64,000 bases of DNA from Flavobacteriales bacterium (GTDB lineage: Bacteria > Bacteroidota > Bacteroidia > Flavobacteriales_E > Vicingaceae), in assembly GCA_020635795.1 (NCBI GenBank), contig JACJZD010000006.1, positions 36,073 through 100,072 on the forward strand, in the 5' to 3' direction. Numbering within the stretch: the first letter of the stretch is position 1; each line of letters opens with the position of its first letter. Shown here piece after piece: positions 12,496 through 63,764 of the stretch. Made by a program: the position numbers and the translations under genes. Below the pieces are notes generated by a model. It was not told the DNA's origin. It saw only the letters and a list, made by a program, of their open reading frames with translations, and searched no databases.

Positions 12496-13479
12496 GTGAT
12501 ATCAAAAGTATTGTTTATCGATTCGGTACATCCTATTTTAGAAGAACGTCTTTTAAAATTAGGAGTGGTTTGCGAGCATGATTATAGTTCGTCAAAAAGC
12601 GAGATAGAAGCCAACATTAGCGACTATCAAGGCGTTGTAATTCGTAGTCGATTTACGTTGGACAAAACTTTTTTAGATGCTGCAACCAACCTTAAATTTA
12701 TTGCACGGTCTGGTGCAGGTTTGGAAAACATTGATGTGGAATACGCCAAACAAAAAGGAGTAAAAGTTATCCATTCACCAGAAGGAAATATGGATGCGGT
12801 TGGTGAGCATACCATTGGAACTTTATTAATGTTGTTTAATCAGCTAAAAAAAGGGGATAACGAGGTTAGAAAAGGCATTTGGGATAGAGAAGGAAACAGA
12901 GGATTGGAATTAATGGGTAAAACGGTTGGAATTATTGGCTATGGCTATATGGGTTCATCGTTAGCTAAAAAATTGAGTGGTTTTGGGTGTAAGGTGTTGG
13001 CTTATGATAAATATAAAAAGGGTTTTGGGTTAGAAGTTGGAAGTTGGAAGTCTGAAGTTGGATGTTGTGTTCAAGAAGTTTCTTTAGAAGAATTAAAAGC
13101 CGAATCTGACATTATCAGCATCCATTTACCTTTAACCGAAGAAACCCAATATTACGTTGATAGCAACTTTATAACATCGGTTAAAAAACCATTTTATTTG
13201 ATTAACACTGCTCGTGGAAACCATGTTAAAATTGCTGATTTAGTTCAAGGATTAAAATCGGGTAAAATTTTAGGAGCATGTTTGGATGTGTTGGAGTACG
13301 AAACCAAATCGTTCGAAACCATTAGCAAAGACAAACTACCTGAAGATTTTGTGTATTTAACCCAATCAAACAAGGTTGTTTTAAGTCCTCATGTGGCTGG
13401 TTGGACAGTGGAATCGTATATTAAACTTTCGTCGGTTTTAGCCGATAAAATTGAACACGCATTTTTTAGTAAACAATGA
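12496..13479 (+). CDS. D-isomer-specific 2-hydroxyacid dehydrogenase (phosphoglycerate dehydrogenase-like), NAD-binding
   Basis: Rossmann motif GIIGYGYMGSSLAKKL, plus NTARG and SPHVAGWT. There is no ATG start. TTG 12475 lies inside an exact TACATTTG -7 box (12470-12477), so GTG 12496 (ISKVLFIDSVHP) is preferred. Confidence 0.8.
   Translation: MISKVLFIDSVHPILEERLLKLGVVCEHDYSSSKSEIEANISDYQGVVIRSRFTLDKTFLDAATNLKFIARSGAGLENIDVEYAKQKGVKVIHSPEGNMDAVGEHTIGTLLMLFNQLKKGDNEVRKGIWDREGNRGLELMGKTVGIIGYGYMGSSLAKKLSGFGCKVLAYDKYKKGFGLEVGSWKSEVGCCVQEVSLEELKAESDIISIHLPLTEETQYYVDSNFITSVKKPFYLINTARGNHVKIADLVQGLKSGKILGACLDVLEYETKSFETISKDKLPEDFVYLTQSNKVVLSPHVAGWTVESYIKLSSVLADKIEHAFFSKQ
13033..13067 (+). repeat. 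heptanucleotide tandem repeat (GAAGTTG x5, two units degenerate) inside the dehydrogenase gene
   Basis: GAAGTTG GAAGTTG GAAGTCT GAAGTTG GATGTTG, translating as LEVGSWKSEVGCC. It lies between the NAD-binding domain and the conserved VSLEEL block. Confidence 0.75.
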
Positions 13480-55081: not shown

Positions 55082-55813
55082 ATGTTCGAAAAATACTACC
55101 TGTTTTATATTCTTGCTTTTGTAGCCGAAGTTATTGGGACAGTTAGTGGTTTTGGTTCTTCTATATTGTTTGTGCCAATTGCTTCGCTATTTTTCGATTT
55201 TCGAATTGTGCTGGGTATTACCGCATTGTTTCATGTGTTTAGCAACATCTCTAAAATAGTTTTATTTCGAAAAGGCATAGACAAAAACATTGCGCTGCGA
55301 CTAGGTATTCCTGCTGTAATTTTTGTTGTTATTGGGGCATTTTTAAGCAAAATAATTCCTGTAGTGGAGCTAGAATTAATCATGAGTGTATTATTAATTG
55401 TGCTATCGGTATATTTAATTTTTTTTAGTAACAAAACCTTAAAAACCTCCAATCAAAATTTATATGTTGGAGGAACAGTTTCGGGATTATTGGCAGGTTT
55501 AATAGGTACAGGCGGAGCAATTAGAGGGTTAACCTTAACTGCCTTTAATTTAGAAAAAGACATTTTTATAGCCACTTCTGCCTTAATTGATTTAGGTGTA
55601 GATTCTAGCCGAACGGTAGTTTATTTTCTTAACGGTTATTTAGAAAAAGAATTTTTAATAACCATACCAGTGCTTATTGTTATTAGTTTTATAGGCAGTT
55701 GGGTGGGCAAACTTATTCTGCATAAAGTTCCTCAGCAAATGTTCAGAATTTTTGTTTTGGTGTTAATTGTTCTTACTTCGATTTTCCAAATCGGAAAATT
55801 TTTAGTCAACTAA
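55082..55813 (+). CDS. TauE/SafE family sulfite/anion exporter
   Basis: 243 aa, 7-8 TM helices. Duplicated G-rich helices (VIGTVSGFGSSILFVP and LAGLIGTGGAIRG). Confidence 0.75.
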   Translation: MFEKYYLFYILAFVAEVIGTVSGFGSSILFVPIASLFFDFRIVLGITALFHVFSNISKIVLFRKGIDKNIALRLGIPAVIFVVIGAFLSKIIPVVELELIMSVLLIVLSVYLIFFSNKTLKTSNQNLYVGGTVSGLLAGLIGTGGAIRGLTLTAFNLEKDIFIATSALIDLGVDSSRTVVYFLNGYLEKEFLITIPVLIVISFIGSWVGKLILHKVPQQMFRIFVLVLIVLTSIFQIGKFLVN

Positions 55814-55908
55814 AGTAATTTGAATCAAAATAAAATATTGTAAATAACATATTTTACAATAAATAACAATCAAATTTTATTTTTTAATTATAAAATACAG
55901 AACAATGT

Positions 55909-55938
55909 TTTGATGTTAAATTTTAATTTGTACATTTG
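55909..55938 (+). promoter_or_regulatory. candidate Bacteroidota-type promoter (TTTG -33 / TACATTTG -7) for the riboswitch-led operon
   Basis: TTTG at 55909-55912 and an exact TAnnTTTG match (TACATTTG) at 55931-55938, with an 18-nt spacer. It lies about 43 nt upstream of the aptamer. Confidence 0.4.
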
Positions 55939-55980
55939 CCTCAGAATTCAAATCACCATTTTTAAATAAAATTGTGTTTG

Positions 55981-56104
55981 ATTTATAAAGAAGAAGCGAG
56001 AGAATAGGCTCTACGACCTTCTGGCAACCAACTAAAAGTCCGTCAGCTGACGGATTGGAAAACCGGTGCCAAATCCTATCCCGAATAGTCGGGGAAATAT
56101 AAAT
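55981..56104 (+). promoter_or_regulatory. SAM-I (S-box) riboswitch aptamer
   Basis: P1 ATTTATA/TATAAAT; P2 AGAAG/CTTCT enclosing GAGAGAATAGGCTCT; junction GGCAACC; P3 TCCGTC-AGCT-GACGGA; GGTGCCAAATCC; P4 CCCGA-ATAG-TCGGG. It lies upstream of metX. Confidence 0.85.
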
Positions 56105-56117
56105 AAAAAGGCAAAAA

Positions 56118-56243
56118 ATGGTAAACAGTACAAAAAATCAGAAAAACAAAACACTAAACCCCACGAGGGCTTTAGTCAATTCTAAAAAGTTACTTTCAAC
56201 AGTAATTTTTAAAATGTGTTGCATGTGTTGTTGCATTTGCTAA
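56118..56243 (+). CDS. 41-codon small ORF with poly-Cys/Met C-terminus (candidate leader peptide)
   Basis: ATG 56118 to TAA 56241-56243, translating MVNSTKNQKNKTLNPTRALVNSKKLLSTVIFKMCCMCCCIC. It falls below the ORF-track cutoff and starts 14 nt after riboswitch P1. Confidence 0.5.
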   Translation: MVNSTKNQKNKTLNPTRALVNSKKLLSTVIFKMCCMCCCIC

Positions 56244-56285
56244 CACATCTTTATTTCAATTAAATTTTCTCGAAATCAAAGATGT
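56214..56285 (+). promoter_or_regulatory. overlapping alternative hairpins spanning the Cys codons and sORF stop (candidate attenuator)
   Basis: ATGTGTT (56214-56220 or 56223-56229) pairs with AACACAT (56242-56248), followed by a U-rich tract. ACATCTTTATTTC (56245-56257) pairs with GAAATCAAAGATGT (56272-56285). The two structures share 56245-56248, so they exclude each other. Confidence 0.4.
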
Positions 56286-56353
56286 AAGCTTTCCAAAAAA
56301 GTAATGGAAATGCTATATCCTGTTTTTACGATTTAAAAATCTCAAATAAAATT

Positions 56354-57403
56354 ATGTCAGTACAAGTATTTAAAAATAACACAAAATTTCAGTTAGAATC
56401 GGGTAAAATTTTACCAACATTTGAACTTGCTTATACCACAAATGGCAAGTTAAACGAGGCAAAAGACAATGTTATTTGGATTACTCACGCTTTAACAGCA
56501 AACGCTAATCCTGAAGAATGGTGGAGTGGTTTAGTAGGTAAAGGAAAATTTTACAACTCCGAAAAACACTTTATTGTTTGTGCCAATGTGTTGGGTTCAA
56601 ATTATGGTTCTACCAATCCATTAGCTGTAAATCCAGAAAATGGCAACAAGTATTACCACAATTTTCCTGAACTCACTATACGCGATATTGTAAATGCTTT
56701 TGAGTTGTTACGTCAACATTTGGGCATTACCAAAATCAACACCTTATTGGGTGGTTCCTTGGGTGGTCAGCAAGCTGTGGAATGGGCAATACAACAGCCC
56801 AACGTAATTGAAAACTTGTTTTTAATCGCAACCAATGCTCAACATTCTGCTTGGGGAATTGCCTTTAACGAAACACAACGATTGGCAATTAAAGCCGACA
56901 GAACATGGTTTTCGTATAGTGATGATGCTGGTTTAAAAGGCTTAAAAGCTGCTAGAGCAATAGCTTTATTGAGCTACAGAAATTACAATACCTATCAAAC
57001 AACTCAAGAAGATAATGCAGAAAAACGGGGTGATTATAAAGCGTCTTCTTACCAAAATTATCAAGGTGATAAGTTGGTAAACAGGTTTAACGCTTTTTCT
57101 TATTGGCACTTAACCAAAGTAATGGACAGCCATAATGTTGGTAGAAACAGAGGTGGAGTAGAAAAAGCCTTGGGGTTAATTCAAGCAAAAACACTTGTAG
57201 TGGCTATTAATTCCGACATCCTTTTTCCTGTTTCGGAATCGGTTAGGTTGCACGAAAACATCAAAAACAGTGAATTAGAAATTATCGATTCGTTGTACGG
57301 ACACGATGGATTTTTAATAGAAACAGAACAGTTAAAAACAATATTTGAAAATTTTTATATCAGTAAAAAATTAAAAAAAGAGATTTATGAGTACGCAAAC
57401 TAA
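56354..57403 (+). CDS. metX: homoserine O-acetyltransferase
   Basis: 349 aa. Alpha/beta hydrolase with nucleophile elbow GGSLGGQQAVEW and C-terminal SLYGHDGFL. Confidence 0.9.
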   Translation: MSVQVFKNNTKFQLESGKILPTFELAYTTNGKLNEAKDNVIWITHALTANANPEEWWSGLVGKGKFYNSEKHFIVCANVLGSNYGSTNPLAVNPENGNKYYHNFPELTIRDIVNAFELLRQHLGITKINTLLGGSLGGQQAVEWAIQQPNVIENLFLIATNAQHSAWGIAFNETQRLAIKADRTWFSYSDDAGLKGLKAARAIALLSYRNYNTYQTTQEDNAEKRGDYKASSYQNYQGDKLVNRFNAFSYWHLTKVMDSHNVGRNRGGVEKALGLIQAKTLVVAINSDILFPVSESVRLHENIKNSELEIIDSLYGHDGFLIETEQLKTIFENFYISKKLKKEIYEYAN

Positions 57404-58601
57404 AAATATTTCACTTATCGGTTTTGGAACAGTTGGACAAGGTTTTTTTCATTATTTGGAAGAAAACAAGGAAGACAAACAATTGGCAACAGTAGTAATA
57501 AAAAATGCTTCGAAAAGCAGAGTTCCTGATACATTAAATTTTAGCACCGATGTAAACGATGTACACAACAACAAAGAAATAACAACGGTTGTTGAGTTGA
57601 TTAGTGATTTTGAACAAGCATTTTCAATTGTAAAACAAGCATTGTTACAAGGTAAGCATGTGGTGTCGTCAAATAAAAAAATGATTGCATACCATTTAGA
57701 AGAGTTGGTTGAATTGGAACAAAACAGCAAAGGAAACTTTTTGTACGAAGGGGCTGTGGCTGGGAGTATTCCAATACTTAAAATTATAAACGAGCAATAT
57801 GCTTTTGATGAAATAACAGAAGTTCGTGGTATTTTAAATGGCACATCCAATTATATTTTAACACAAATTTTTGAAAAAGGCATTGGCTATAAAGAAGCAT
57901 TGCAACAAGCTCAAGATGCTGGTTTTGCCGAAGCCAATCCTGCCTCAGATGTTGAAGGGTATGATGCGCTTTACAAGTTGTTAATTTTAGCAACACACGC
58001 TTTTGGTAAATTTATTTCGCCTGAAAAAGCATTAAACATTGGTATAAACAACATCAAAAACAGCGACATTGTTTTTGCTAAAAAAAACAAGCTAAGCATT
58101 AAGTTAGTTGGGTCAATTAAAAGCATAAACAATAAACTTACTTTAAGTGTTTTACCAACTTTTGTTGACGAAAACGATGATTTGTACCATGTTAAAAATG
58201 AATACAATGCTATTGAGGTGATTTCTAAAAACATTGGTTCGCAAGTTTTTAAAGGTAAAGGTGCAGGTAGTTTACCAACGGGGCATGTGGTTTACACCGA
58301 TTTTAAATCGGTAGAAAACACCAACTATTCGTACAAAAATATTCCATCAGGAAAACGAATTAAGTACGAAACCAAAGACAGTATTTGGGTGTATTCCAAT
58401 AAAATTACCTTGCTTGAAAAATATTTGGAAGATGTAGTATTATTCAACGGACCAGAAGGTTATGGAAGCGTTAAAATTGCTGATTTGATAAAAGCAAAAG
58501 ACATTATAAGTGTACACAATTTATCCATTATTGCAGTAAACGAAAACATCCGACAACAATTAGTAAAACAACAGCGCAAAGCAGTATTCACTTACGCATA
58601 A
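57387..58601 (+). CDS. hom: homoserine dehydrogenase
   Basis: 404 aa. N-terminus ISLIGFGTVGQG, plus YEGAVAGSIPI, GILNGTSNYILT, AEANPASDVEGYDA and GKGAGSLPTG. Overlaps metX by 17 nt. Confidence 0.88.
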   Translation: MSTQTKNISLIGFGTVGQGFFHYLEENKEDKQLATVVIKNASKSRVPDTLNFSTDVNDVHNNKEITTVVELISDFEQAFSIVKQALLQGKHVVSSNKKMIAYHLEELVELEQNSKGNFLYEGAVAGSIPILKIINEQYAFDEITEVRGILNGTSNYILTQIFEKGIGYKEALQQAQDAGFAEANPASDVEGYDALYKLLILATHAFGKFISPEKALNIGINNIKNSDIVFAKKNKLSIKLVGSIKSINNKLTLSVLPTFVDENDDLYHVKNEYNAIEVISKNIGSQVFKGKGAGSLPTGHVVYTDFKSVENTNYSYKNIPSGKRIKYETKDSIWVYSNKITLLEKYLEDVVLFNGPEGYGSVKIADLIKAKDIISVHNLSIIAVNENIRQQLVKQQRKAVFTYA

Positions 58602-58611
58602 ATACAAAACA

Positions 58612-60702
58612 ATGAGAAGTTTTAGAACGGAAACAGAAAACATATTAGACCCAGTAGTAGAACGCGATATTATTGAATTAGGAGAAAAAATTCACCTATT
58701 CAAAACTGGTAAAATGCCTGAAGATAAATTTAAGAGTTTGCGTTTAGCACGTGGAGTTTATGGTCAACGACAGTTGGGTGTACAAATGGTGCGTATCAAA
58801 TTGCCTTATGGTAAATTGTTGGCAAAACAATTGGTAAGAATTGCAGATGTTGCTGATGAGTATTCTAATGGAAATTTACATTTAACCACTCGTCAAGATG
58901 TACAGATTCACCATGTGAGCTTAGACAGAACACCTGAACTTTGGGCAGAGTTAGAACGAGATAATATTACGCTAAGAGAAGCTTGTGGAAACACGGTAAG
59001 AAACATTACGGCATCTCCATTTGCAGGGATTGACCCTGACGAACCTTTTGATGTATCTCCGTATGCCGAAGAGTTGTTTCAATATTTACTTCGTAACCCT
59101 GTAAATCAGGACATGGGAAGAAAAATTAAAATATCGTTTTCGTCGAGCGAGAAAGATACAGCTTATTCCTTTTTACACGATTTAGGATTTATTCCTATCA
59201 TTCAACATGGAGAAAAAGGATTCAAATTATTGGTGGCTGGAGGGTTAGGTGTTAAACCTTTTTTAGGTCAATCGGTAACTAATTTTATTAAAGCTGAAGA
59301 TATTTTTGCTTACACCACAGCAGTTTTAAGGGTTTTTGACCGTTATGGTGAACGTCAAAAAAGAAATAAAGCACGTTTAAAATATTTAGTTGAAGAGTTA
59401 GGCTTAGACCAATTTTTAGCATTGGTAAATCAAGAACACAAGGTAGTTGATGTTTATGAACCAAAAATAGTTGAATTTGTTGCTCCTAAGTTAGCAGAAA
59501 TACAACTTGCACCATCAGTTAAAGGTAATGTGTCGGAATATTTAACTTGGTATAAAACGAACATTTATAAACAAAAACAAGCTGATTTTTTCACCATTTT
59601 GCTAAAAATAACTAACGGTAACATCCATTCCGATGTAGCTAGAAAATTGGCTGATTTGGTTCAAAAATATGCTGGTGGTGAGTTTAGGGTAACGATAAAC
59701 CAAGGGCTTATTATTAAATATGTCAGAGAAGAATCATTGCCCTATTTCTACCAAGAGTTGAACAAGTTAAATTTAGCTAACACAGGTTTTGATAGTGTTG
59801 CCGATATTACTGCTTGTCCAGGAACGGATACTTGTAATTTGGGAATAGCAAACAGCACCAATTTAGCTGAAGAATTGGAAAAATTTATTGCCAACGAACA
59901 TGCAGAATTGGTTTTTAACAAAGACATTAAAATAAAAATTAGTGGCTGTTTTAATGCGTGTGGTCAACATTCTATTGCAAACATTGGTTTTCATGGAAGT
60001 TCAATTAAAGATGGAGACAAATTAGTGCCAGCAGTTCAATTACTGTTAGGTGGTGGAGTTGTAGGTGGTGGAGAAGGTGTAATTGCGGAAAAAGTAATTA
60101 AACTTCCCACAAAAAAAGCCATAAAAGCAGTCGATAAAATTTTAGGAGACTATAAAACCAATGGAAATGATCTGTTTTTTAACCAATATTATCAGAAACA
60201 AGGCAATCATTATTTCTACGATTTGTTAAAACCTATTGCAAACGAACCGTTAATTGATAGCGATTATTCTGATTGGGGACAACAAACAACTTTTAATATG
60301 AATGTTGGTGTTGGAGAGTGTGCAGGTATTGTTTTAGACTTGTCGGATGCCATTAAATATGAAATAGAAGAACGTGTTGCCTCTGCAAAAGAAACGCTTG
60401 AGTTGAAGAGATATGCAGATGCTATTTATCATGCTTACACCATTTTTATTAATGTAGGTAAACTGTTTTTGTTAAAGCATGGCGAAAAGTATAACAGTCA
60501 AGCTCAAATTATTGAAACTACTGAAAAGTTGATTCAAGAAAAAGGGGTAGCATTATCCAAATCGTTTACCGAAATAGTGTTTCAGTTACGAGAACAAAAA
60601 GCAAGCGAAGAATTTGCAAAACAATATTATAATGATGCTCTTCAGTTTTACAACGAATTGAATAGTATTGGCAAACTAACAAAAGAACGAATAGAACCAT
60701 GA
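58612..60702 (+). CDS. sir: assimilatory sulfite reductase, ferredoxin/sirohaem-[4Fe-4S] type, with ~130 aa helical C-terminal extension
   Basis: 696 aa. Duplicated NiR/SiR modules, cluster-binding cysteines TACPGTDTCNLG and SGCFNACGQH, and an extra C-terminal helical domain from about residue 560. Confidence 0.85.
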   Translation: MRSFRTETENILDPVVERDIIELGEKIHLFKTGKMPEDKFKSLRLARGVYGQRQLGVQMVRIKLPYGKLLAKQLVRIADVADEYSNGNLHLTTRQDVQIHHVSLDRTPELWAELERDNITLREACGNTVRNITASPFAGIDPDEPFDVSPYAEELFQYLLRNPVNQDMGRKIKISFSSSEKDTAYSFLHDLGFIPIIQHGEKGFKLLVAGGLGVKPFLGQSVTNFIKAEDIFAYTTAVLRVFDRYGERQKRNKARLKYLVEELGLDQFLALVNQEHKVVDVYEPKIVEFVAPKLAEIQLAPSVKGNVSEYLTWYKTNIYKQKQADFFTILLKITNGNIHSDVARKLADLVQKYAGGEFRVTINQGLIIKYVREESLPYFYQELNKLNLANTGFDSVADITACPGTDTCNLGIANSTNLAEELEKFIANEHAELVFNKDIKIKISGCFNACGQHSIANIGFHGSSIKDGDKLVPAVQLLLGGGVVGGGEGVIAEKVIKLPTKKAIKAVDKILGDYKTNGNDLFFNQYYQKQGNHYFYDLLKPIANEPLIDSDYSDWGQQTTFNMNVGVGECAGIVLDLSDAIKYEIEERVASAKETLELKRYADAIYHAYTIFINVGKLFLLKHGEKYNSQAQIIETTEKLIQEKGVALSKSFTEIVFQLREQKASEEFAKQYYNDALQFYNELNSIGKLTKERIEP

Positions 60703-61460
60703 AATCGAAAGTACACATAGTAGGAGCAGGTCCGGGAAGCGCCGATTTGCTTACTTTAAGAGCTGTAAAAGCGATACAAAATGCAGATGTAATTTTATAC
60801 GATGCACTAATTTGCAAAGAAACCTTAGATTTTGCTTCGGCTCATTGTGAAATGATTTATGTGGGAAAAAGAGCTGCAAACCATGAATATTCGCAAGAAA
60901 AAATTAATCAGTTGATTGTAGAGAGTGCTTTTAGATACCAAAACGTAGTTCGTTTAAAGGGAGGCGATCCATACATTTTTGGACGCGGACATGAAGAGTA
61001 TGAATATGTAAGTGCTTTTGGAATTGAAGTTGAGGTAGTACCAGGTATTTCTAGTGCTATAGCGGTACCAGAATTGGAAAACATACCGCTAACTAAACGA
61101 GGTGTGAGTGAAAGTTTTTGGGTAGTTACGGCCACCAATAAAAAAGGAGAGCTTACTAATGATGTTAAACAAACAGTTTATGTAAATGCAACCATTGTTG
61201 TGTTAATGGGTGTAAGTAAATTACCCGAAATTGTTCAGTTATATGCAGAAAACGGTAAAGAAAATTTACCCATAGCAGTTATACAAAACGGTTCGTTGCC
61301 TAGTCAAAAAATAGTAACAGGAACGATAAAAACGATTCAAGAAGTAGTGGAGAAAAACAAAGTTGGAACACCTGCTATTATTGTCTTGGGAGAGGTAGTA
61401 GCTTCTCGACCAGAGTTTTTATTGGAACAAATTAATGTTAATCAAAACAGAAAAAAATGA
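60699..61460 (+). CDS. cobA: uroporphyrinogen-III C-methyltransferase
   Basis: 253 aa. Motifs VGAGPGSADLLTLRA, ILYD, RLKGGDPYIFGRG and VPGISSA. Overlaps sir by 4 nt. Confidence 0.92.
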   Translation: MKSKVHIVGAGPGSADLLTLRAVKAIQNADVILYDALICKETLDFASAHCEMIYVGKRAANHEYSQEKINQLIVESAFRYQNVVRLKGGDPYIFGRGHEEYEYVSAFGIEVEVVPGISSAIAVPELENIPLTKRGVSESFWVVTATNKKGELTNDVKQTVYVNATIVVLMGVSKLPEIVQLYAENGKENLPIAVIQNGSLPSQKIVTGTIKTIQEVVEKNKVGTPAIIVLGEVVASRPEFLLEQINVNQNRKK

Positions 61461-62092
61461 CAACAAATACACTATACCCTATTTTTTTAAAATTGGATAA
61501 AATAAACACCTTAATTGTTGGCGGCGGAAATATTGGGTTAGAAAAATTGAATTTTATTTTAACACAAAGCCCTCGTGCAAACATAAAAATTGTATCCCCT
61601 GAATTTCATCCAGAAATAATTTTAATAGCTATTGCCAATAAAAATATACAATTGCTGGAACGCAAATTTGTTGATTCGGATTTAGCCAACATTAAAATAT
61701 TAATTTTGGCAACAAATAATCTTGAATTGAATACGCAAATTTATTTTAAAGCTCAGAAAAAAAACATTTTAACCAATATGGTTGATAAACCTGAGTTCTG
61801 CGATTTTTATACGGGAGCAGTTTTACAAAAAGGAAATATAAAAATCGGCATTTCTAGTAATGGAGTTTCGCCAACAATAGCCAAAAGATTAAAACAACTA
61901 TTCAACGAGGCTATTCCAGAAAACATTTCAGCATCTTCCGAAAACTTAAATAAAATTCGTACTAAATTAAAAGGTAATTTAAAACTAAAAGTAGCGATAT
62001 TGAACCAGTTAACGGAGGTCTTGGTAGATGATATTCCTCATCAAAGCAACCAAAATAAAACCTCAATTTTACAACACATCAATTGGAATTAA
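61457..62092 (+). CDS. sirC: precorrin-2 dehydrogenase / sirohydrochlorin ferrochelatase (sirohaem synthase N-terminal type)
   Basis: 211 aa. Motifs LIVGGGNIGLEKL and ISSNGVSPTIAKRLK. Overlaps cobA by 4 nt. Confidence 0.8.
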   Translation: MTTNTLYPIFLKLDKINTLIVGGGNIGLEKLNFILTQSPRANIKIVSPEFHPEIILIAIANKNIQLLERKFVDSDLANIKILILATNNLELNTQIYFKAQKKNILTNMVDKPEFCDFYTGAVLQKGNIKIGISSNGVSPTIAKRLKQLFNEAIPENISASSENLNKIRTKLKGNLKLKVAILNQLTEVLVDDIPHQSNQNKTSILQHINWN

Positions 62093-62096
62093 AACA

Positions 62097-62786
62097 ATGG
62101 GATTACAGCAACTTAAAAGAACGTTTACACCAGAAGAAATAAAAGCGTTAAATAAAAAATACAAAACACTAACAGTTGAACAACGTGTGGAAGAATTGTA
62201 CAAAGATTTTGATGCAAAAGAAGTGATGCTAACATCCTCTTTTGCAGCTACTTCTGCTTTTTTATTGCGCATTTTTTCTAAAATAAATAATGCTCAAAAA
62301 ATTTATTTTATCAATACAGGTTATCATTTTAAAGATACCTTAACGTATAAAGAAAAACTAACGGAATTATACCACTTAAACGTAGAAGATGTAACGGCAG
62401 AAAAATGGGAGCATGATTTTACTACTAAAGATGAAACGTGGAAAAAAGACCCCAATCTGTGTTGTTCGGTAAACAAAGTAAAACCTCTTGAACTTATTAA
62501 GGAGCGATTTACGGTTTGGGTTTCGGGCTTAATGGAATGGCAAAGTGACCATCGTGCATCGTTAAATATTTTTGAAGAAAGAGGTGGTATTTTGAAGTTT
62601 TATCCTTTGTTGGATGTTACCAAAGAACAACGTGATGAATACATAAAAACCCATCTATTACCGTTTCATCCCTTAGTTGCAAAAGGGTACTCGTCTATAG
62701 GTTGCGAACATTGTACCGTACCTGGTGATGATAGGGAAGGAAGATGGAACAATAACCCAAAAACCGAATGCGGATTGCATTTGTAA
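62097..62786 (+). CDS. cysH: adenylyl-sulfate (APS)/PAPS reductase, Fe-S-cluster-type CysH
   Basis: ATG 62097 (MGLQQLKRTF); the ORF track start 62028 overlaps sirC. It carries the CC...CxxC set (NLCCSVNKVKPL, IGCEHCT) and a C-terminal ECGLH. Confidence 0.88.
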   Translation: MGLQQLKRTFTPEEIKALNKKYKTLTVEQRVEELYKDFDAKEVMLTSSFAATSAFLLRIFSKINNAQKIYFINTGYHFKDTLTYKEKLTELYHLNVEDVTAEKWEHDFTTKDETWKKDPNLCCSVNKVKPLELIKERFTVWVSGLMEWQSDHRASLNIFEERGGILKFYPLLDVTKEQRDEYIKTHLLPFHPLVAKGYSSIGCEHCTVPGDDREGRWNNNPKTECGLHL

Positions 62787-62793
62787 AATTTGT

Positions 62794-63351
62794 ATGAAAG
62801 AGTTGATTAATTTTCTTGTCGAACCTTGGGCTTGGTATGTGTCAGGACCACTTATTGGGTTAATTGTTCCGTTGTTGATTTTAACGAGCAACAAACAATT
62901 TGGAGTGTCATCTTCATTGAGATACGTATGTTCATCATTAAAACTCTCGAAACGAAGCTATTTTAATTATAACTTCAACGAACAACAATGGACAATGTGG
63001 TTTATTTTAGGCGTTTTTTTTGCAGGCGTTTTTTCTTTTCAACTTATTGAAATAGAGACGAGTGAGTTAAGTCAATCAGCAAAAGATTACTTTGAAAAAA
63101 AACACATCGGGATAAAAGGAATTTTTCCAGCAGATGTTTTTAATTGGAACAAATTATTTTCAGTTGCTGGTTTATTATTGGTGATTGGAGGGTTTTTATT
63201 GGGGTTTGGCTCTCGATATGCCGATGGTTGTACCTCTGGTCATGCAATAATGGGATTGAGTTTGTTAAGTAAAACCTCATTGGTTTCAGTAATAGGATTT
63301 TTTATTGGAGGAATTATAGGTACATTTTTAATTTTAGATTATTTGCTGTGA
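62794..63351 (+). CDS. YeeE/YedE family sulfur-compound transporter, N-terminal-half gene
   Basis: ATG 62794 (MKELINFLVEPWAW); the ORF track start 62725 overlaps cysH. The conserved motif YADGCTSGHAIMG is present, with 4-5 TM helices. Confidence 0.75.
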   Translation: MKELINFLVEPWAWYVSGPLIGLIVPLLILTSNKQFGVSSSLRYVCSSLKLSKRSYFNYNFNEQQWTMWFILGVFFAGVFSFQLIEIETSELSQSAKDYFEKKHIGIKGIFPADVFNWNKLFSVAGLLLVIGGFLLGFGSRYADGCTSGHAIMGLSLLSKTSLVSVIGFFIGGIIGTFLILDYLL

Positions 63352-63764
63352 TAAAACATTTAAAATACATCTTGTTAGGGTTTTATTTTGGATTTGTGCT
63401 AATCAAATCCGAGGCAGTATCTTGGTATCGTATTGTGGAAATGTTTCGTTTTCAATCGTTTCATTTGTACGGAGTAATTGGTTCTGCTGTTATAACTGGA
63501 ATAATTTCTGTTTTAATTATTAAAGGAGTACACTTAACCACTGTTAAAGACGAACCTATTGATTTAAAACCAAAACCATTTTTACCAAAAGCTAACTTTT
63601 TTGGAGGAATAATTTTTGGTTTAGGTTGGGCTATTGTTGGAGCCTGTACAGCACCACTTTTTATTCATTTTGGAGCAGGAAATTACATTATTGTTATACC
63701 AATTATTGCTGCAATTTTAGGGACTTTAGTTTATGGGTTTTTAAAAGAAAAATTACCTCACTAA
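63348..63764 (+). CDS. YeeE/YedE-like transporter, C-terminal-half gene
   Basis: 138 aa with 4 TM helices and the Cys motif GWAIVGACTAP. Overlaps the upstream gene by 4 nt. Confidence 0.65.
   Translation: MIKHLKYILLGFYFGFVLIKSEAVSWYRIVEMFRFQSFHLYGVIGSAVITGIISVLIIKGVHLTTVKDEPIDLKPKPFLPKANFFGGIIFGLGWAIVGACTAPLFIHFGAGNYIIVIPIIAAILGTLVYGFLKEKLPH

Follow-up and report, generated by a model that had tools for sequence, protein, structure and literature searches.

How does a SAM-I riboswitch control the genes behind it when the expression platform expected next to its aptamer cannot be found? This question is raised by a stretch of DNA from a Flavobacteriales bacterium (GenBank assembly GCA_020635795.1, contig JACJZD010000006.1, positions 36,073 to 100,072), all 64,000 nucleotides of which are called the window here and numbered from the first letter. 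An aptamer for S-adenosylmethionine (SAM) lies there in the 5' leader of a MetX-family gene, a homoserine dehydrogenase gene (hom) and sulfate-reduction genes (at other loci, in front of a MetY-MetX pair), and it is followed by a short open reading frame (sORF) which ends in a run of Cys and Met codons. By its anatomy, the element is a leader-peptide attenuator combined with a SAM-I aptamer; both mechanisms are known, and no description of their serial coupling was found. Such a leader probably reads both SAM and the charged Met/Cys-tRNA before the sulfur and methionine genes are transcribed. The full mechanism that we propose, and hold to be fairly likely, is a serial two-input transcription attenuator, in which the ribosome relays the decision of the riboswitch to terminators.

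The initial annotation of this DNA, which was made from the letters alone, had read a complete SAM-I aptamer at 55981-56104. The search against Rfam gave a full-length match to RF00162 at 55980-56105 on the plus strand (65.1 bits vs a gathering score of 44.4; E 6.8e-13), which spans model positions 1-108 (P1-P4), holds a 28-nt insertion in P3 and is the sole Rfam match in the window. The segment is a member of the SAM-I aptamer family, and SAM binding is predicted for it. Barrick and Breaker (PMC2258182) describe some SAM-I riboswitches whose ribosome-binding site is part of the 3' side of P1, and they do not mention leader peptides. A canonical platform, which would consist of a terminator/antiterminator overlapping P1 on its 3' strand or of a Shine-Dalgarno sequence placed within P1, was not found in the window, and a simple terminator scanner reported no terminator-like site on the plus strand from 55700 to 56500, including directly after the aptamer. 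In place of the canonical platform there is a helix, called P0 here, which ends at the AUG of the sORF.

The sORF extends from ATG 56118 to TAA 56241-56243 on the plus strand, begins 12 nt behind the end of the Rfam aptamer and encodes MVNSTKNQKNKTLNPTRALVNSKKLLSTVIFKMCCMCCCIC in 41 codons, with MCCMCCCIC as its C-terminus. Read directly, the sequence agrees with what had been noticed before: eight of the last nine codons are for Cys (6) or Met (2), and residues 2-32 include neither of them. The regulatory Met/Cys codons, taken from the list of open reading frames (ORFs) and from conservation, occupy 56214-56240. No other sORF with 30 codons or more on either strand of the 64 kb has 5 or more Cys and Met residues in its last 10 codons.

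We fetched 80 loci with the MetX protein from contigs of one genome per species. The MetX identity is 95% for the closest locus, which comes from a Flavobacteriales metagenome-assembled genome, 69-81% for Vicingaceae, and 52-60% for Mucilaginibacter, Pedobacter, other Sphingobacteriales and some Bacteroidales. It turned out that 65 of the 80 loci contain a SAM-I aptamer by Rfam, and these include Flavobacteriales/Vicingaceae, Mucilaginibacter, Pedobacter, Arcticibacter, Sphingobacterium, Olivibacter and Rikenellaceae. The aptamer lies either 140-390 nt or 1.45-2.2 kb before metX, and at the distant positions the first gene encodes a Cys/Met enzyme dependent on pyridoxal phosphate, of the MetY type, in the ten cases checked. 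Together with the window there are 66 leaders, and every one of them (66 of 66) has an AUG at -2 to +17 nt from the aptamer end, mostly at +7 to +14, which opens an sORF of 16-59 codons. Cys accounts for 37.9% of the last 10 codons vs 1.5% in the rest of these sORFs, and Met for 16.7% vs 1.4%. At least four Cys and Met codons among the last 10 are present in most sORFs (55 of 66), and the richest Cys and Met block of all three frames falls in the sORF frame at 62 of the 66 loci. Both Cys codons are used (TGC 143 times, TGT 113 times). The C-termini read, for example, ..MMHSMCCCCTC in Vicingaceae, ..VMMMCCMCCCMC in L002 and L003, ..YCCMCCCC in Mucilaginibacter, ..MPLMPMCMC in Rikenellaceae and ..CCCCC in Arcticibacter. 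The N-terminal sequence is wholly different between orders, and motifs such as MNTINK and SVLVTEF in Vicingaceae are kept within families. A Cys/Met run conserved across loci from several orders behind a drifting N-terminus is the pattern that the initial annotation had proposed to look for in relatives.

The unique Cys/Met tail in the window and the same type of sORF after all 65 other aptamers exclude a chance ORF, and we are highly confident that the 41-codon sORF is a true leader ORF, kept by selection and tied to the aptamer. Beyond the fetched loci, a scan of metagenome DNA with the pattern ATATAAARAATTRCAWRATG gave an aptamer with a Cys/Met sORF in at least two stretches (L094 and L105) among the 120 matches listed. 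Both are Vicingaceae-type leaders, at 2215-2409 in L094 and on the minus strand in L105 (reverse-complement coordinates 12939-13070), with the tails MMMQRTRCCGTC and MMMHRTRCCSCC respectively; the sORF of L094, with 64 codons, is the longest seen. An exact sequence look-up of ten sORF peptides in a collection of 15 billion predicted proteins found none of them (0 of 10). The sORFs, that of the window among them, are thus absent from gene calls, which makes a phylum-wide regulatory element invisible to standard annotation.

A conserved ORF with family-level N-terminal motifs (MNTINK and SVLVTEF again) could also point to a functional product, that is, a Cys-rich micropeptide which binds metal or sulfur, or a precursor of a modified peptide, co-transcribed with the sulfur genes by chance. 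We hold this to be extremely improbable. The N-terminal two thirds are wholly different between orders and the length ranges from 16 to 59 codons, the conservation of the SVLVTE region coincides with a covarying RNA hairpin, and neither Pfam nor NCBIfam gave a family match to six of the sORF peptides, including that of the window, at E values up to 10. The conserved trait is the position relative to the aptamer and the terminator-like hairpins.

What connects the aptamer with the leader ORF is helix P0, in which bases that precede P1 can pair with a complementary spacer right in front of the AUG. In the window, RNAduplex pairs the 5' strand UUGUgUUU (TTGTgTTT in the DNA; 55972-55979, plus strand), which extends P1, with the 3' strand AAAgGCAA (56107-56114), which ends 3 nt before the AUG; in most loci, the end of P0 is 0-3 nt 5' of the AUG. 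The pairing sequence is lineage-specific. The two strands are GUAAUUG and (G)AAUUGC in Vicingaceae, GGUU and AACC-AUG in Mucilaginibacter, GGUUUU and AAAACC-AUG in Pedobacter, GUCUU and AAGAC-AUG in L049, L071 and L072, and CGUAAUUA and UAAAUUACG in L053. Because the register of the helix differs between lineages, an energy test was chosen over a gapless pseudo-alignment; duplex energies were compared between cognate and non-cognate partners, with the invariant P1 excluded. For 48 distinct combinations, the flank/spacer duplexes averaged -4.04 kcal/mol with cognate partners vs -2.88 kcal/mol with non-cognate ones (permutation p 5e-5).

In Flavobacterium, the structure and the bases upstream of the start tune translation, and Shine-Dalgarno pairing plays no part in it (PMC6847099). 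P0 would stack on the SAM-stabilised P1 and cover the region which Bacteroidetes ribosomes need open, and the helix supports a predicted gating of sORF initiation by the aptamer. Such gating had been suggested by the initial annotation from the missing terminator behind the aptamer. That absence stands, and the gating now rests on P0 and not merely on the absence.

The N-terminal part of the sORFs is rich in A (37%) and poor in G (14%), with more C than G at 61 of the 66 loci. This composition fits an open start region and may leave room for Rho if the sORF is untranslated. It is also rut-like, as would be expected from two independent regulators in one leader, a constitutive Cys/Met attenuator and an aptamer which acts separately and does not gate the sORF, e.g. 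through Rho-dependent termination or decay of the untranslated leader RNA. Rho is reported to be widespread across bacterial lineages, Bacteroidota are not among the named exceptions (PMC13613805), and the P0 of the window is weak, which agrees with this explanation. However, in all 66 leaders the AUG follows P1 very closely and at an almost constant distance, a covarying helix that ends at the AUG is hard to explain without an action of the aptamer on initiation, and the Rho route would itself require SAM-dependent translation. Two separate regulators thus appear unlikely, and a gated leader ORF is the reading that we follow further.

Between the Met/Cys codons and metX, the leader can form three hairpins, A, B and C. 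Hairpin A (56214-56248, plus strand; -14.3 kcal/mol, z -3.1) has the Met/Cys codons as its 5' arm and loop, and the stop codon with AACACAT as its 3' arm. The duplicated ATGTGTT (56214-56220 and 56223-56229), its partner AACACAT (56242-56248) and a following U-rich tract had already been pointed out, and they are found at these positions; the U-tract (CTTTATTTC, CUUUAUUUC) covers 56249-56257, and hairpin A with this tract, called T1, corresponds to the segment 1:2 of attenuators. Hairpin B (56245-56285, plus strand; -8.6 kcal/mol, z -4.0), with the arms ACATCTTTATTTC (56245-56257) and GAAATCAAAGATGT (56272-56285), is a stem of 13 bp with one bulged C, and it overlaps the 3' arm of hairpin A as had been described. 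Hairpin C (56281-56319, plus strand, 14 bp; -10.7 kcal/mol, z -5.2) was given by a search for hairpins plus U-runs. It is followed by CTGTTTTTAC up to 56329, a U-run which contains CTGTTTTT, and the whole is called T2. A and B share 56245-56248, and B and the lower stem of C share 56281-56285, so that the neighbours are mutually exclusive. Besides, a small hairpin P (GTTACT/AGTAAT at 56189-56206, plus strand; -2.8 kcal/mol, z -2.2) followed by TTTTT stands just before the Met/Cys codons. The initial annotation included neither hairpin C with its U-run, nor P0, nor the hairpin at 56189-56206.

The leader from the aptamer end to metX folds better than its shuffles (z -4.3). For covariation, the leaders of 15 Flavobacteriales were aligned by MAFFT without any fitting to structure, and pairs were counted on the named helices. 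It turned out that 84.0% of the cells are paired in hairpin A (covariation 0.201; 6 pairs changed on both sides), 80.4% in hairpin B (0.193; 5 pairs) and 78.9% in hairpin C (0.416; 9 pairs), with a covariation score reached by 0 of 500 shuffles in each case. In the control, in which the 3' partner was slid by 1-3 columns, 14-51% were paired. The covariation of A and B answers a check which the initial annotation had named for its stems. The helix homologous to P (5 bp) is paired in 78.7% of the cells with covariation of 0.396, also reached by 0 of 500 shuffles, and P is a possible pause hairpin of the RNA polymerase that would let the ribosome catch up. RNAalifold, run on the MAFFT alignment of the leaders, recovered only fragments of A and C. 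In hairpin A, the compensation takes place between codons and the bases behind the stop: AUGUGUU goes with AACACAT in the clade of the window, AUGAUGC with GCAUCAU in Vicingaceae, and AUGCUG with CAGCAU in L012. Across the 66 loci, the post-stop segment of the same locus is a better partner for the coding tract (-10.06 kcal/mol) than the segments of other loci are (-8.11 kcal/mol; p 5e-5), and the Cys/Met tract is more paired than the N-terminal part of the sORF (probability of being unpaired 0.335 vs 0.538, p 2e-11).

A T1-like combination of hairpin A and a U-tract is present in all 15 Flavobacteriales sequences (15 of 15), in most of which the U-tract comes directly after A. Vicingaceae hairpins A have mostly -17 to -25 kcal/mol and are followed by TCTTTTTTC or UCUUUUUUC; that of L014 has -21.5 kcal/mol with z -5.0. 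A U-tract (at least 7 T in 9) is found within 40 nt 3' of the sORF stop at 37 of 66 loci, compared with 5 of 66 for a control region inside the sORF N-terminus and 11 of 66 for one at +61 to +100. Stem-loops at the 3' ends of Bacteroidota transcripts are reported to be close to typical intrinsic terminators (PMC13613805). T1 and T2 are terminator-like, and we infer that transcription can end at both of them.

The roles of the hairpins differ from those first assigned. The initial annotation had proposed a two-tier leader, in which the ribosome on the Cys/Met codons selects between the first hairpin and the 13-bp stem. The core of this idea is supported by the sORF present in 66 of 66 leaders, the covarying P0, the covariation of A, B and C, and the ribosome-position models given below. 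The details needed a change: B cannot antiterminate the first hairpin, because its 3' arm is transcribed after the U-tract of hairpin A. The likely role of B is to block the putative second terminator, T2 (56281-56319 and the U-run).

We modelled the effect of the ribosome by a mask, in which 28 nt around the A site were forced unpaired, and used as readout how probable the five outermost base pairs of C are in the partition function. In the window, this lower stem of C has a probability of 0.67 with no ribosome. It falls to 0.00 when the A site is placed on Ile-30 or on any of six codons out of the seven that run from Met-33 to Cys-39 (0.01 on Phe-31 and 0.18 on Lys-32), and it is 0.60 on the penultimate codon Ile-40 and 0.98 on the last Cys or the stop codon. 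The same pattern is given by L001, L004, L011 and L014, and by L006 except for two Cys codons in the middle of the tract (0.53 and 0.84); L007-L010 show the trend weakly due to their weak lower stems. Folding truncated RNAs gave a similar picture for the window. The full leader RNA folds into A and the complete C. After the 5' arm of A is removed, B appears together with the upper part of C, whose end is then 6 nt above the base of the full stem and about 9 nt away from the U-run, and when the RNA is removed up to 10 nt past the stop codon, the complete C is restored. In these models, the exclusive hairpins respond to the ribosome position as an attenuator should, a stalled ribosome giving B (2:3) and a finished one giving C (3:4), and this behaviour is supported.

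A stalled ribosome might instead open a structure which hides the start of metX and leave transcription unaffected, as in the translational control of mycobacteria (10.1101/834739). Some Mucilaginibacter loci would suit such a control: about 30 nt ahead of their main ORF they have a distal CAACAGC, with which the Cys codons (GCUGUUG) can base-pair. The models speak otherwise: the accessibility of the main ORF start is the same across the ribosome masks (0.64, 0.63 and 0.63, not significant; 62 loci, in every group), so an unmasking of the metX start by a stalled ribosome finds no support. Besides, the metX start of the window is already open (0.78), and terminator-like hairpins with U-runs lie between the sORF and metX. 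Control of metX translation is thus very unlikely, and termination is the output that we consider.

Starting from the aptamer, the conserved sORF, P0 and the covarying, mutually exclusive hairpins, the proposed attenuator would work as follows. The transcript would begin about 35 nt before the SAM-I aptamer. Binding of SAM would close P1 and P0, and the nucleotides just 5' of the leader AUG would be paired, so that no ribosome loads, since initiation in Bacteroidota is not led by Shine-Dalgarno sequences and requires a start region that is open and rich in A. If no ribosome is present, hairpin A would form and transcription would end at the U-tract of T1 or, on escape, at T2, which would still act then because A holds the bases that B needs. 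When SAM is low, the leader ORF would be translated. If Met- and Cys-tRNA are well charged, the ribosome would reach the stop codon, cover the 5' arm of B and leave; A would refold, C would be complete and transcription would stop at T2. If charging is poor, the ribosome would wait on the Met/Cys codons and enclose the 5' arm of A. The 3' arm, released in this way, would form B together with the U-tract, and B would take the lower stem of C away from the U-run, so that the polymerase could enter metX, hom and the sulfate-reduction genes. The output would be roughly the fraction of transcripts without bound SAM multiplied by the probability of stalling at Met/Cys. T1 would report that there is no ribosome, as a SAM veto, and T2 that the ribosome has finished, as a Met/Cys veto.

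Several points weigh against this mechanism. At 4+3 bp and -4.8 kcal/mol, the P0 of the window is weak. Neither T1 nor T2 of the window is picked up by the simple terminator scanner, which also gives no site at all in the leaders of L014 and L004; it needs uninterrupted stems and loops of 3-8 nt, and here the stems are broken by mismatches or bulges and C has a 9-nt loop. The folds are equilibrium folds, which ignore co-transcriptional kinetics. With tight coupling of polymerase and ribosome, any translating ribosome would bypass T1. The AND logic would give poor induction under Cys starvation with high SAM, which is physiologically awkward unless the repression by SAM is leaky. Besides, no second U-run terminator was found in the Sphingobacteriales relatives, which have kept the aptamer and P0, the sORF with hairpin A and the U-tract, and a long B-like hairpin, so the T2 part of the model is not general; in L015-L048 (Mucilaginibacter and other Sphingobacteriales) the B-like hairpin between the sORF stop and the main ORF is ACAGTTAATACGTTTCC..GAAAAA..ACGTGTACTGT. 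Finally, the Pedobacter-type loci L054, L056, L057, L069, L059 and L077 have lost the Cys run (tails such as ..RMYLTY) and kept the sORF, which may then have a role independent of Cys/Met sensing. These loci retain the strong P0 GGUUUU/AAAACC-AUG, and L054, L056 and L057 have a small hairpin and a U-run just before metX.

The last two of these points also bear on another explanation, in which the sORF is the expression platform of the riboswitch only: any ribosome melts A, as in pyrBI, and the AUG/UGY repeats just build a G-U-rich hairpin. The Pedobacter-type loci, with aptamer, P0 and sORF but without a Cys run, and the Sphingobacteriales without T2 would be expected from it, and A with its U-tract is strongly terminator-like with the coding tract as its 5' arm. 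Many other codon sets could form such a hairpin, however, and the enrichment is specific to the two sulfur amino acids of the pathway, in frame at 62 of 66 loci. The tract ends at the stop codon or within a few codons of it (at the stop in the window), and B and C covary and, in the models, respond to a stalled or a finished ribosome exactly as in classical attenuators. A pure platform is thus rather improbable as a full account. What the Pedobacter-type loci suggest is that the basal job of the sORF is that of the expression platform, and that the sensing of Met and Cys was added in most lineages. For the phylum in general, the balance tips slightly towards the following rule: SAM-I riboswitches of Bacteroidota before met and sulfur operons would have no RNA-only platform, their aptamer would gate a dedicated sensor ORF through an extension of P1 which adjoins the AUG, and the ribosome would carry the SAM decision about 100 nt to terminator hairpins made with Met/Cys codons, which adds the charging of Met- and Cys-tRNA.

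Among known systems, the closest in design are the classical attenuators, such as trpL, hisL, thrL and leuL in proteobacteria and the Bacteroid-trp leader in Bacteroidetes. Like them, the leader described here contains a short ORF with a run of codons for the end products of the pathway and three hairpins (1:2, 2:3 and 3:4) that exclude each other; a terminator-like hairpin with a U-run lies ahead of the first structural gene, and the position of the stop codon would let a finished ribosome block segment 2. Unlike in them, the initiation of the leader ORF would be under a metabolite-binding aptamer, two amino acids (Met and Cys) would be read, the 1:2 hairpin has a U-tract of its own, and the leader ORF, at 41 codons, is long and has an N-terminal spacer which is unstructured and rich in A. 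In Salmonella and E. coli, the mgtA leader also combines a ligand-sensing RNA, for Mg2+, with a codon-sensing sORF, the proline-codon mgtL, which lies inside the alternative stem-loops of the sensor and is read out by Rho; here the sORF is downstream of the aptamer and would be gated in series, with predicted intrinsic terminators as readout. In the pyrBI attenuator and in riboswitches which control Rho termination via translation (ribB and lysC), a ribosome close behind the polymerase blocks the terminator, so that control of translation becomes control of transcription. The same principle is proposed here, but with a dedicated sORF of sensor codons between the aptamer and two terminator-like hairpins.

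Cys-codon sORFs have been described as leaderless polycysteine sORFs with a translational readout in mycobacteria (10.1101/834739), as the motif uORFC-8-2 upstream of cysS with a U-run terminator readout in Rhodobacterales (PMC8632094), and as predicted attenuators in actinobacteria (PMC1262725). They share with our case the run of Cys codons in a short upstream ORF before sulfur or cysteine genes and the proposal that stalling changes the fold, and uORFC-8-2 also has a U-run terminator at its end, comparable to the terminator-like hairpins here. The coupling to a riboswitch, the mixture of Met with Cys codons and the occurrence in Bacteroidota set the present leader apart. The mycobacterial sORFs differ further in acting on the translation of the next gene, and here a leader of about 175 nt, counted from the promoter candidate and including the 126-nt aptamer, precedes the sORF AUG, so this sORF is not leaderless. 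In M. tuberculosis, a translated leader under the control of a B12 riboswitch lies upstream of ppe2, and there is a uORF in the metE B12 riboswitch (PMC11260477). In both, as proposed here, the riboswitch is a translational OFF switch on an upstream ORF whose translation the downstream gene needs, but they work by termination-reinitiation, no amino-acid-sensing codons are reported in the uORF, and there is no choice of terminators (PMC11260477). In Xanthomonas campestris, a SAM-I riboswitch senses uncharged initiator tRNA as well (PMC7270179), and it resembles this leader in standing before met genes, integrating SAM with the Met-tRNA status and acting through translation. It binds uncharged tRNA-fMet directly and frees the Shine-Dalgarno sequence, whereas here a translating ribosome on Met/Cys codons would be the sensor and termination the output.

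A search of the full-text literature, in which subscription journals were poorly covered, yielded no account of a SAM riboswitch joined to a Cys/Met leader peptide, nor of any Cys/Met leader peptide in Bacteroidota. If the proposed mechanism is true, this would be the first sulfur-amino-acid leader peptide described in Bacteroidota and the first found case of a codon-sensing attenuator wired in series with a metabolite riboswitch. In a phylum which lacks Shine-Dalgarno sequences, it would show how transcription can be controlled by a riboswitch from a distance, with a translated sensor ORF as the expression platform, and it would be a natural multi-input gate which reads three signals of the sulfur status, SAM, Met-tRNA and Cys-tRNA, in one leader. 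The design can be tested directly in cultivable strains of Mucilaginibacter, Pedobacter or Vicingus.

Upstream of the aptamer, pattern matching gave a candidate promoter of the Bacteroidetes type, TTTG-N18-TACATTTG, at 55909-55938 on the plus strand, with boxes of the -33/-7 consensus as quoted in PMC9723704. The pattern alone is not significant (4 matches vs 6.5 expected). At 45 of 64 loci, a TAnnTTTG box is found 39-64 nt, mostly 46-62 nt, 5' of the aptamer. Between this box and P0 there is a small conserved hairpin, ATCACnnnnnGTGAT in Vicingaceae, GTTGC..GCAAC in L013 and GGTAGCAATACC in Sphingobacteriales. L051 has, upstream of its SAM leader and divergent from it, a cobalamin riboswitch aptamer on the minus strand (1-117; 69.2 bits), which is cut by the end of the locus.

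The gene cluster behind the leader covers 56354-63764 on the plus strand, and its orientation and short or overlapping junctions make co-transcription probable. By ORFs, Pfam and NCBIfam, it encodes a MetX-family homoserine O-acyltransferase, homoserine dehydrogenase, a protein of the NirA/sulfite-reductase type, a tetrapyrrole methylase, a siroheme-type NAD-binding protein, a reductase for 3'-phosphoadenosine 5'-phosphosulfate or adenosine 5'-phosphosulfate (PAPS/APS) and two sulfur-transport proteins. These genes are predicted to supply O-acylhomoserine and sulfide for Met and Cys, in agreement with the initial annotation, which had seen genes for O-acetylhomoserine and for the reduction of sulfate to sulfide. 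The MetX-family protein (56354-57403) scores below the curated NCBIfam cut-offs for MetX (335.9 vs 500, and 309.8 vs 331).

In this cluster, the ORF listed for the PAPS reductase begins within the siroheme-type ORF before it, with 65 nt in common at the end of the latter (62028-62092), and the true start of the reductase ORF is probably a downstream ATG. Immediately 5' of the leader and outside the riboswitch-controlled unit, a gene of the TauE/SafE sulfite-exporter family lies on the same strand at 55082-55813. In L003, a tandem repeat of the heptamer ATCAATT, in about nine copies, stands between the attenuator and the metY-type gene, at about 1440-1530.

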